In this document: positions 9,001 through 12,000 of the stretch, in pieces
Layout of the letters: each line of letters opens with the position of its first letter
Position numbering within the stretch: the stretch's first letter is position 1
DNA from: a virus
Taxonomy: Duplodnaviria > Heunggongvirae > Uroviricota > Caudoviricetes
DNA length: 13,815 nucleotides
Virus record (IMG/VR): IMGVR_UViG_2778261151_000008
Strand: one strand, 5' to 3'
Program-made: the position numbers

Positions 9001-12000
9001 CAAGTAAGGCTCGCTGTGAGCATTGTGCTGGTACTGGATTTCATAATGTATTGCGCGAAGTGGTGAAACACTCCAGAAGCGGGGAATCTGTTATCAAGGA
9101 AGAGTGGGTGAAGGAACTATGTCAGCATTGTCATGGTAAGGGAGAAGTCAGCACAGCGTGCAGAGGGTGTAAGGGTAAAGGTATTGTCCTGGATGAAAAA
9201 AGGACCCGGCTTCATGGCACGCCTGTTTATAAGATTTGTGGGCGTTGCAATGGAAACCGGTTTAGCCGTTTACCAACCACACTGGCGCGGCATCATGTCC
9301 AGAAGCTGGTACCAGACCTGACGGATTATCAGTGGTACAAAGGATATGCAGATGTCATTGATAAACTGGTTACAAAGTGCTGGCAGGAAGAAGCATATGC
9401 AGAGATACAATTGAGAAATGTGACAAGATAAATGGTTTTCGCCGAAGATGACGACATGATGCTTGCATTTTTCAAAAAATATGGATAAGATTTTCCCAAC
9501 GATGGGCTTTGTATGTCTACCGTTGATAAGATTTAAGAACCCGCCACTGAGCGGGTTTTTTTGTGCCAGATGTCTCATGAAACTATGAAATGGATTGGTG
9601 CGTTAAACATTTTTTCTTATTATCTTTTAGATTTTGGAGAGATGGTTAACGTCTGTATTCCAGAAACTCGATGATTATTTAATAAATTAGTTTCAATGAT
9701 GCTTCTAGGTTATGACTGTAATGAAAAAGGTATTAATAGCAGCGATAGGTTTTTGTTTAGTTGGTTGTGCAGGTATGAAATTACCTGAGTATTCGCAAGT
9801 TAAAGCAAGTCCGTATTATACAGATTGCCGTGCGTTTGCCATGGATGTTTATAAAAATGATGGATACAGCAAAATTGCGAAAACTACTATCCTTAGCATG
9901 GATGATGTGAAGGCTAGATATATTGTGACAGGGTGTGTAGTTGCTATGGGGAAAAACACTGTAGAGGAAATCAAAGCTGATCTCTCTGCTAAAGGGAGTT
10001 CTTTTGGGCTTATCAGTGGAGCTTGTTCTAGTGCGGCATGTCGGGTTGATGTAGAGCAGCAAATGAACGCTTATGTACTTGGTAGTTATTATGCTGCAAA
10101 TAAAAAATTCCCGGATAAAATGAAAGCAGAGTTTTAAGTAAACCTTGTTTTCGATTATATGTCGAAGATAAATGTTAGTAACGGCATAATAAGTAAATAT
10201 ATAGCTGTGATAGCAACCCGCCACTGAGCGGGTTTTTTGTACCTGTAAACTTGGTGCAGTACAGTAAACACGCTGGTGGTCGTGAATACTGACTTTTTAT
10301 CTTGCTGGCTTTTTAGACAAGAGTTATTGGTATGTCATGTTAACCAGAAGGGAAAAAGACATGCTAAAACAGCAAGATATGACAGAAACCGCCGCCGCAG
10401 TCCTTCATTTCTTACCTGCTGACAAGTGGGTAACGCCACGCATGATGACGAGAACTACCGGAGTAAGCGAAGCCCGGTGCCAGTTAATACTGACTCAGTT
10501 AGTTCTGGCGGGTCTGGCGAAGGATAACGGCGGGTACGGGAATAAATTCAGACGCTGCCAGTAATGGCGGTTTCCTGCTGTGAAAATGGGCGGCTGGTGG
10601 GTGTTGGTAGCACCTGCCAGCCATTCGCTCATGCCTACTGGTCACAAGCGAACCACGGCCCACTGCTTTAGCGCAAAAGCAGAGTGAGCCTACCAGAGTT
10701 ACGCTTACTGATCCATGAAAAATACTGTAAAAATAAACAGTGTTGATTTAATCAACGCTGATTGCCTGCATTTTATTCAGTCCCTGCCTGATGATTCCAT
10801 TGACCTGATTGTTACCGATCCGCCGTACTTCAAGGTGAAACCCAACGGCTGGGACAATCAGTGGAAAGGGGACGAAGATTACCTTAAGTGGCTGGACCAC
10901 TGTCTGGCCCAGTTCTGGCGGGTGTTAAAACCTGCCGGAAGCCTTTACCTGTTCTGTGGGCATCGCCTGGCATCTGATATTGAGATCATGATGCGTGAAC
11001 GTTTCAACGTGCTTAACCATATCATCTGGGCGAAGCCGTCCGGACGTTGGAATGGGTGTAATAAAGAAAGTCTGCGCGCATATTTTCCTGCCACAGAGCG
11101 CGTTCTGTTTGCTGAACATTACCAGGGACCATATCGCGGCAAAAGTGACGGCTATGCGGCAAAAGAAAGGGAACTCAAACAGCACATAATGGCACCGCTG
11201 ATATCGTATTTCAGGGATGCTCGTGCCGAACTGGGTATAACGGCAAAACAAATTGCCGAAGCCACAGGTAAGAAAAATATGGTTTCCCACTGGTTTGGTG
11301 CCAGTCAGTGGCAGTTGCCGAATGAGGCTGACTATCGGAAGTTACAGGCACTGTTTTCCCGTATAGCGGCAGAGAAGTTTCAGGAACAACAACTGGAACA
11401 ACCACACCACCAGCTGGTGGCATCTTATGATTCACTGAATCGCAAATATTCTGAATTGCTGGATGAGTTTAAATCTCTCCGGCGCTATTTCTCCGTATCA
11501 GTCTCCGTGCCTTATACCGATGTCTGGATGCATAAACCCGTTCAGTTCTACCCGGGGAAACATCCGTGTGAGAAACCGGCGGATATGCTCAGGCAAATAA
11601 TCAATGCCAGTAGTCGACCAGGTGATCTGGTTGCTGATTTTTTTATGGGATCCGGTTCCACAATAAAAGCAGCAATGGCGCTGGGGCGTCGGGCCTTAGG
11701 TGTTGAGCTTGAGTCAGAGCGGTTTAACCAAACAGTGAAAGAGATAAACGAGCTGGTGGGGAAATAATCTGGTGGCCACGTCAGGTGGCCTTTTTATTTC
11801 CATTACACAGCACCCGCATCTGCGAGGTGGGGTTATGAAATCCATGGATAAGTTAACAACGGGTGTCGCCTATGGCACCTCAGCAGGTAGTGCCGGGTAC
11901 TGGTTTTTACAGTTGCTCGATAAAGTCACGCCCTCACAGTGGGCGGCAATAGGTGTGCTGGGTAGTCTGGTATTTGGCCTGCTGACGTACCTGACAAACC

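Follow-up and report, generated by a model that had tools for sequence, protein, structure and literature searches.

What do the 150 bases do that separate a small hypothetical gene from a DNA methyltransferase gene in the late operon of a lambdoid prophage? The question arises in a stretch of 13,815 nt from IMG/VR record IMGVR_UViG_2778261151_000008 (below, the window), in which an open reading frame (ORF) of 67 aa at 10361–10564 and a methyltransferase gene of 350 aa at 10715–11767, both on the + strand, flank a gap at 10565–10714. RefSeq and phage records annotate the first as a hypothetical protein of 67 aa and the second as a DNA methyltransferase of 350 aa, and leave the 150 bases between them unannotated. 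The first-pass annotation of the window had read the two genes and a structured gap, together spanning 10361–11767, as a possible three-part regulatory unit; these boundaries hold, and the gap contains no conserved ORF. We find that approximately 137 nt of it, at 10578–10714 on the + strand, form a conserved structured leader RNA of the methyltransferase gene, identified by conservation, covariation and linkage. On computational grounds, this RNA probably serves as a cis-acting translational control leader of a toxic late-operon enzyme, working through occlusion of the ribosome-binding site (RBS).

Across Enterobacterales, the leader is under stronger sequence constraint than the genes that flank it. 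We fetched 80 species-level loci, all of which encode relatives of the methyltransferase. In Trabulsiella, Kluyvera, Citrobacter, Salmonella, Klebsiella and other genera, the DNA of the gap is 85–92% identical to that of the window, whereas identity falls to about 80% for the methyltransferase protein and to about 50% for the small protein. Across 26 diverse loci, identity to the window is 80% for the leader, 72% for the methyltransferase DNA (47% at third-codon positions) and 52% for the small ORF. Recent horizontal spread of an ordinary spacer, or the coding of a short peptide, could in principle produce a conserved gap, and lambdoid mosaics have indeed spread recently among enterics; the window also has a 33-codon ORF that begins at a conserved AUG (10586). 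Yet synonymous sites in the adjacent genes are only 47–53% identical, the variable positions of the leader concentrate in loops, and one-nucleotide indels break the ORF, leaving 3–33 codons and unrelated peptides across loci, so that we regard this explanation as very improbable. A readthrough fusion of the small ORF with the methyltransferase was also rejected: the two share a frame in the window, but two in-frame TGA codons lie between them and the length of the gap varies by 1–2 nt.

The conserved unit is the leader together with the methyltransferase gene. Among viral contigs, a 21-nt piece of the leader is followed by the methyltransferase start after 129–131 nt in 114 of its 121 occurrences. 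Three of the other seven are cut by contig ends and four are truncated remnants fused to an AraC-like moron, so that the spacing of 129–131 nt to the ATG holds for every one of the 114 copies in which the gene is kept. Among complete Escherichia coli genomes, 2690 of 5426 carry the leader, O157:H7 included, with up to eight copies each, and none of these copies has an RNA feature annotated at the leader. The range extends to Proteus, Morganella and Gilliamella, and M.EcoGII-type genes, discussed below, carry the same leader. A metagenome scan for distant loci gave only relatives at least 80% identical; the useful sources of divergence were genome contigs and a viral scan seeded with Gilliamella.

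This widespread structured RNA is apparently undescribed. Rfam 15 has no match within 10565–10714 at the gathering score or at E ≤ 10, and no description was found under the leader sequence or under M.EcoGII regulation in an incomplete library of searchable papers. Shiga toxin (Stx)-type phages carry tRNAs at this position; a tRNA or tmRNA remnant was discarded after ARAGORN found neither in the gap. Decayed or partial copies of the 5′ part of the leader (AAUGGGC plus the first long hairpin) are present in viral contigs L100, L138, L164 and L183 and at 2020–2090 of L008, at moron junctions that involve an AraC-like regulator followed by tRNA-like sequence, or a 160-aa ORF. The 5′ domain of the leader appears to be a recurrent recombination boundary.

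The gap is structured beyond chance, as had been suspected from its hairpins. For the + strand the folding energy is −62.5 kcal/mol (z = −3.07), and none of 200 shuffled sequences is as stable; the − strand gives z = −1.99. In the minimum-energy fold of the window's sequence, the open fold, the segment AUGGGC at 10586–10591 pairs through UGGGC with GCCCA at 10658–10662 (helix P0) and closes a three-way junction with two hairpins. The first of these, H1 (10592–10622), is a long hairpin that joins GGCTGG at 10592–10597 to CCAGCC at 10617–10622; the second, H2 (10624–10652), pairs UUCGCU with AGCGAA. The near-palindromic hairpin H3 (10663–10682; CTGCTTT at 10663–10669 with AAAGCAG at 10676–10682, core GCUUU/AAAGC) and the hairpin H4 (10684–10708; GUGAGC/GCUUAC) follow, all on the + strand, and UGAUCC-AUG is left single-stranded. 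H1 and H3 are the two hairpins that the first-pass annotation had singled out, as GGCTGG-N19-CCAGCC and CTGCTTT-N6-AAAGCAG.

The helices of the open fold covary. In a MAFFT alignment of 42 sequences, 90.7% of cells pair, compared with 33–44% in slid controls, and 11 pairs change on both sides; the helices specific to this fold reach 92.4%. The covariance-model (CM) alignment, A4, holds 95 distinct sequences including those of Proteus, Morganella, viral contig L296 and Gilliamella. On it, 93.5% of cells pair (slid controls, 34–46%) and both partners change in 21 of the 34 pairs, a result reached by none of 500 shuffles. One H2 pair shows four pair types (UA 40, CG 25, AU 20, UG 4), the H1 stems are fully rewritten with compensation in Proteus, L296 and Gilliamella, and P0 changes from G-C to A-U in Mixta and from C-G to G-C in Gilliamella.

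This pattern also bears on whether the conservation is that of a DNA operator or promoter, for instance the near-palindrome GCTTTAGCGCAAAAGC bound by a dimer of the small protein, which has a predicted winged helix-turn-helix (wHTH) fold. In several loci H3 forms a perfect palindrome of 16 bp, other palindromes replace it in Proteus and Gilliamella, and the wHTH gene lies next door. However, many pairs are G-U (for example, in 83, 67 and 85 of the 95 sequences) and would be A-C mismatches on the other strand, the helices change in sequence and still pair, the gap yielded no promoter-like hexamers, and the palindrome is unchanged in loci that lack the wHTH gene. Because of the frequent G-U pairs and the strand asymmetry of the fold, we read the element as RNA rather than as a DNA palindrome and hold a DNA-level role to be quite improbable. 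No promoter in the gap reached the threshold of the prediction tool, and inspection by eye gave only weak matches overlapping H3. The proposal that the wHTH protein acts on a methyltransferase promoter therefore finds no promoter-like site here, and the evidence points to translational control at the RNA level.

A second fold competes with the first. RNAalifold predicts other long-range helices on the MAFFT alignment, and several orthologues have a different minimum-energy structure. In the closed fold, AUGGGC pairs with GCUCAU at 10627–10632 (P1′), H1 and H3 are retained, a central helix joins (A)GGCC-CAC to GUG-GCC(U), in which the 5′ arm of H4 takes part by pairing with GGCC-CAC, and an anti-RBS helix forms; P0, H2 and H4 are excluded. 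The anti-RBS segment GGUCACAAGC, at 10640–10649 on the + strand, is made up of the H2 loop and 3′ arm and is complementary to 10703–10713, pairing with GCUUACUGAUC just 5′ of the AUG. Written out, (A)GGUCA-C-AAGC pairs with GCUU-AC-UGAUC(U), which occupies the 11–12 nt directly before the start codon. This is the translation-initiation region, GCUUACUGAUCC-AUG, at 10703–10717 (+), assigned from sequence and pairing statistics. In E. coli, the methyltransferase gene lacks a canonical Shine-Dalgarno sequence. UGAUC might act as a surrogate for one, since it could base-pair, at the right spacing, with GAUCA close to the 3′ end of 16S rRNA.

Pairing in the closed fold is as well maintained. Taken by itself, the anti-RBS helix is paired in 95.4% of cells (slid controls, 5–44%). 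The three helices specific to this fold pair in 94.6%, whether measured on the CM alignment or on the MAFFT one, which was built blind to structure, compared with 24–43% in slid controls. Covariation for the closed fold scores above all shuffles, and it extends to the nucleotide at position −1 relative to the AUG and the base opposite it (AU 42, GU 23, GC 13). When each fold was enforced in turn, the closed one was more stable in 80 of the 95 variants, by a mean of 6.3 kcal/mol. Two further pairings did not hold up: a P1 helix, GUGAA/UUCGC, pairs in the long form with a shifting register and is convincing only in the short form of Xenorhabdus and Photorhabdus, and an extra pseudoknot joining the loop of H2 to the 5′ arm of H4, inspected by eye, changes inconsistently across lineages.

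The occluding pairing recurs with different sequences in two other lineages. The Gilliamella pairing joins CUGGUCAU to AUGACCAG, a segment that contains the start codon. Xenorhabdus has a shorter leader, in which GGCUUUCC has two alternative partners, the Shine-Dalgarno region GGAAUAGCC and a local one. The Xenorhabdus and Photorhabdus loci (L044–L076) carry a leader of approximately 90 nt that lacks the 3′ arm of H2, the 3′ strand of P0 and H3, and that keeps a covarying closing helix, GGUGAA/UUCACC, around H1. Their methyltransferase probably starts at a GUG 12 nt 3′ of the position aligned with the E. coli ATG, since an in-frame TAG follows 'ATGGAA'. Viral contigs L287–L297 represent a methyltransferase lineage in a P2-like context, approximately 58% identical, with a canonical AAGGAG and without the leader.

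These observations can be set against a reading in which the gap encodes a trans-acting or processed small RNA (sRNA), such as a decoy, an anti-sRNA or a stabilising element, with the methyltransferase nearby only incidentally. The leader is a conserved structured RNA in the moron-insertion region downstream of the late promoter pR′, a region from which prophage sRNAs are known (PMC4104026), and its partial 5′ copies persist at other moron junctions. The gap, however, has neither a promoter of its own nor a terminator at its 3′ end, its distance to the ATG is fixed, and complementarity to the initiation region is kept with different sequences in three lineages, all of which makes an sRNA improbable. 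The anti-sRNAs AgvB and AsxR and the Pas sRNAs were rejected as relatives: their contexts differ, the leader sequence was not found in their papers or supplements, and Rfam gives no match to an sRNA family.

What the leader would control is an enzyme of a characterized family. The methyltransferase matches PF01555 (N6_N4_Mtase) at E = 2.2e-42 (145.9 bits; cut-off 26.7) over residues 29–341, and the PADLOC MTase_II model at 3e-152. DPPY (motif IV; residues 35–38, nt 10817–10828) stands N-terminal to the FxGxG motif (motif I), here FMGSG (residues 310–314, nt 11642–11656), and the recognition domain lies between them, which gives the beta-class order that the first-pass annotation had recognized. 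An insert of approximately 125 aa separates the two Rossmann halves. The closest solved relatives are beta-class enzymes including M.RsrI, MboIIA and CcrM, whose structures match both Rossmann halves and do not match the central ~125 residues. No neighbor scanned with Pfam and PADLOC (the wHTH ORF, the lipoprotein, Q, the holin, lysozyme and Rz) matches a restriction-nuclease model, so the enzyme is an orphan, and a Type II restriction-modification system was ruled out because no cognate endonuclease gene lies beside it. The DUF968/HNHc_6 protein encoded 2 kb upstream is a common gene of the lambdoid nin region.

The enzyme itself is not new; by sequence, it belongs to the M.EcoGI/GII family. 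It is identical to M.EcoGII at 281 of 349 residues (81%), colinear from end to end with two gaps, the reference being a machine-read copy, with some errors, of the sequence printed in the supplement of PMC11551740. The two agree in length (350 versus 349 aa), in the motif order DPPY – central recognition domain – FxGSG and in their prophage setting, and differ in 19% of residues, with many of the differences falling in the central recognition and linker region. The sister enzymes M.EcoGII and M.EcoGI, each of 349 aa and encoded by prophages of E. coli O104:H4, methylate adenine in any context, are harmful under constitutive expression and are not expressed in the lysogen; M.EcoGII acts on RNA as well as DNA (PMC5778455). 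Homologues of M.EcoGII are likewise silent in the methylomes of O111 Shiga toxin-producing E. coli (PMC6602927). This silence in lysogens is known for homologues only, and for the gene in the window it is the position in a prophage late operon that has been established. By its similarity to M.EcoGII, the allele studied here would methylate adenines without sequence specificity. Motif finding on close homologues has thus largely been done, and the idea of an anti-restriction function with late expression, put forward in the first-pass annotation, agrees with what the authors of these studies proposed. The published work on M.EcoGII covers the cloned ORF and not the native leader (Murray et al. 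2018, PMC5778455).

A mechanism can be proposed from these elements. The methyltransferase would presumably be made only after Q antitermination, and would modify progeny phage DNA against restriction, as the literature on its homologues suggests. In the closed fold (P1′, H1, the anti-RBS helix, the central helix and H3) the RBS would be masked, and in the open fold (the P0/H1/H2 three-way junction with H3 and H4) it would be free. We infer that the fold controls ribosome access and so keeps a toxic enzyme low or transient. The switch between folds could be kinetic, with only nascent transcripts that have not yet equilibrated being translated, a scheme that needs no partner and would fit a self-contained module of leader and gene. 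Alternatively, a factor might stabilize the three-way junction, with a ligand, the methyltransferase itself or the wHTH protein as candidates.

Several points weigh against this proposal. All functional claims on the leader are computational. The window's own variant favors the open fold (−57.8 versus −54.4 kcal/mol), so a closed default is not universal, and prefix folding gave no consistent co-transcriptional pathway, with results that differed between variants. Pairing is poorly kept in H4 and at the outer pairs of H3, and most helices are near-invariant, the covariation coming from few lineages (Proteus, Morganella, Gilliamella, L296 and L031). The shuffle control retains phylogenetic signal, and related sequences can beat shuffles. 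The CM alignment was fitted to the open fold, yet it supports the closed fold as well as the MAFFT alignment does. A pseudoknot coexisting with H2 and H4 is another possible reading of the GGUCA/UGAUC half of the anti-RBS helix. Finally, the assumption of a non-specific enzyme derives from 81% identity to a machine-read supplement sequence that has some errors.

If a factor does set the switch, the three-way junction could be an aptamer or a protein-binding operator, in which a small molecule (S-adenosylmethionine or S-adenosylhomocysteine, for example), the methyltransferase or the wHTH protein stabilizes one fold. We consider this unlikely, while giving it some weight: there are two alternative folds, each covarying, the nucleotides of the junction and loops are invariant across genera, M.EcoGII acts on RNA (PMC5778455), and the wHTH protein, encoded beside the leader in most loci, has a fold similar to that of RNA-binding winged helices, SelB and Z-alpha among them. 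On the other side, no Rfam riboswitch matches even at E ≤ 10, about a third of leader-bearing loci have no wHTH gene, and the short form of Xenorhabdus and Photorhabdus lacks the third arm of the junction. A somewhat more doubtful possibility still is that the junction is specifically a sensor. It would then be a riboswitch of a new class, responding to a metabolite linked to methylation or phage development, or else an operator that the methyltransferase reads or writes (N6-methyladenosine on its own leader shifting the fold).

Known systems offer partial parallels to RBS occlusion by the leader. In the leader of the MS2 maturation protein and in hok mRNA, long-range pairing hides the RBS at equilibrium and only nascent RNA is translated. 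As there, an upstream complement pairs with the initiation region, intervening hairpins compete, and the product is wanted in small amounts; in contrast, no sequence relationship exists, and prefix folding of the leader gave results that differed between variants. Translational riboswitches share with the leader a conserved multi-helix junction, an expression platform that overlaps the RBS and two exclusive folds, but the leader has no known ligand or Rfam match and exists in a shorter form without part of the junction. In the com-mom system of phage Mu, a small protein encoded upstream, the zinc-finger protein Com, opens an inhibitory hairpin and so activates translation of a toxic DNA-modification gene. 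The toxic DNA-modification enzyme, the small ORF just upstream and the RNA structure masking the initiation region all recur at our locus, although the leader is larger (137 nt, multi-helix) and there is no homology. Activation of the com-mom type was rejected, as the small protein here is a winged helix without a Cys4 motif and is dispensable, being absent from approximately 15 of 44 leader-bearing loci. Restriction-modification systems controlled by C proteins also place a small helix-turn-helix (HTH) gene upstream of the modification gene; C proteins, however, are Xre-type HTH proteins that bind promoter C-boxes, while at this locus the protein is a winged helix, no nuclease is present and the element behaves as RNA. 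With sense-strand structure in the 5′ untranslated region, covariation and an occluding alternative pairing, the leader shows the computed features of RBS-sequestering leaders and would add a member to them.

The 67-aa protein at 10361–10564 (+) matches phrog_331, a protein family without known function. AlphaFold2 and Foldseek confidently predict a stand-alone winged helix, in line with the winged-helix call of the first-pass annotation. The ORF has identical ends in the annotation of RefSeq and of phages mEp460 and Ayreon, and its conservation by codon position (0.54/0.65/0.37) has the pattern of a real coding gene. The AlphaFold2 model, built from a 30-sequence alignment, has a predicted local distance difference test score averaging 88.4 and the order a1-b1-a2-a3-b2-b3, with helices at residues 4–17, 26–33 and 37–49 and strands at 53–55 and 63–65. 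Its best full-length Foldseek match is Z-alpha (template modeling score 0.84), followed by TrmBL2, IclR-type and SelB winged-helix domains. NCBI names homologues of 50–60% identity 'TrmB family transcriptional regulator'. A search of the protein against NCBIfam gave no match, and none of 30 homologues had a profile match above the curated threshold; matches below it were to TrmB (26 of 30, best E 2.5e-4), MarR_2 (21 of 30) and DprA_WH (19 of 30).

By tblastn, the wHTH gene is present in 55 of the 80 genome loci that encode relatives of the methyltransferase. It is missing beside the leader in approximately 15 of 44 species-level loci of the long form, where other genes or Q itself lie upstream. 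Because about a third of leader-bearing loci do without it, the wHTH protein is not an obligate partner or regulator; it is an optional accessory and a frequent neighbor. Of the proposed three-part unit, the pairing of leader and methyltransferase is thus conserved, and the small protein is not a required part.

Several features of the small ORF and its surroundings were noted along the way. Its homologues are mosaics (P0052–P0057 versus P0064–P0117), in which one N-terminal half is joined to one of two alternative C-terminal wings, KDNGGYGNKFRRCQ or DYQFGCYRRLQ; MLKQQDMTETA and RCQLILTQL do not vary. The first 24 nt of the ORF are unusually conserved (84%). Its stop codon falls within the tetraloop of a hairpin, GCUGCCA-GUAA-UGGCGGU, at 10554–10571 (+). 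This stem covaries, and in loci L011, L014, L017 and L020 a U-run follows it, making a full intrinsic terminator immediately 5′ of the leader. Upstream of the ORF, an element of approximately 37 nt at 10301–10337 (+), CTTGCTG-N12-14-CAGAGTTAYNTGTRTGTCA, is kept from E. coli to Xenorhabdus and Proteus in an alignment of 53 loci. It comes after a terminator in nearly every locus, contains a weak promoter-like TTGCTG/17/TATTGG and has no match in Rfam; it is a candidate weak promoter or 5′ untranslated-region element.

The wider locus agrees with the late-operon location proposed for the methyltransferase. The window is a lambdoid prophage with a cI-type repressor and replication genes, which are followed in the 5′ to 3′ direction by a KilA-N protein, a DUF968 protein and the Q antiterminator (PF03589; ending at 9431). 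Downstream of Q come a lipoprotein gene, the 67-aa ORF, the methyltransferase, a P21-type holin, lysozyme and Rz. Just 3′ of Q, the sequence TTGCAT-17-TAAGAT at 9463–9491 (+) is a putative pR′-like late promoter. An identical 24-nt terminator core, AACCCGCCACTGAGCGGGTTTTTT, is found twice on the + strand, at 9538–9561 (tR′ type, following the terminator annotation in phage Ayreon) and at 10215–10238, flanking the lipoprotein moron at 9712–10137; outside these cores the sequences around the two copies are unrelated. It looks as if the moron had been inserted along with a duplication of tR′. A further intrinsic terminator at 11774–11795 (+) lies between the methyltransferase and holin genes. By this layout of promoter and terminators after Q, the wHTH ORF and the methyltransferase lie in the Q-dependent late transcription unit, and are probably expressed via Q antitermination.

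The region 10140–11800 is 99.5–99.6% identical to phages mEp460 and Ayreon and approximately 98.9% identical to phage cdtI, and close copies occur in 1493 of the 5426 complete E. coli genomes. Elsewhere in the window, Rfam matches at the gathering score were found on the + strand for the Hfq-binding RNA isrK (4116–4192, 64 bits) and for C4 antisense RNA (4217–4304, 82 bits), both within a mechanically called 278-aa ORF at 3756–4592. The pair suggests an RNA immunity or anti-Q module of the Gifsy-1/P1 type and a possibly spurious ORF at that place. Out of frame inside Rz (12532–13011), at 12764–12970 (+), lies an ORF of 68 aa that has a lipoprotein signal, the usual arrangement of Rz1.

The leader would add an unannotated structured RNA to E. 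coli, and its covariance model could become an RNA family. Should the junction prove to be a sensor, about half of E. coli genomes would carry, on a phage, a switch that sets the timing of a non-specific DNA methyltransferase. M.EcoGII is in wide use as a reagent in footprinting of chromatin and RNA, and the restraint of its toxic activity in natural prophages has so far been explained only as non-expression; a conserved and apparently bistable leader is a testable answer. If it is correct, the lambdoid late operon would give a single gene its own translational gate.

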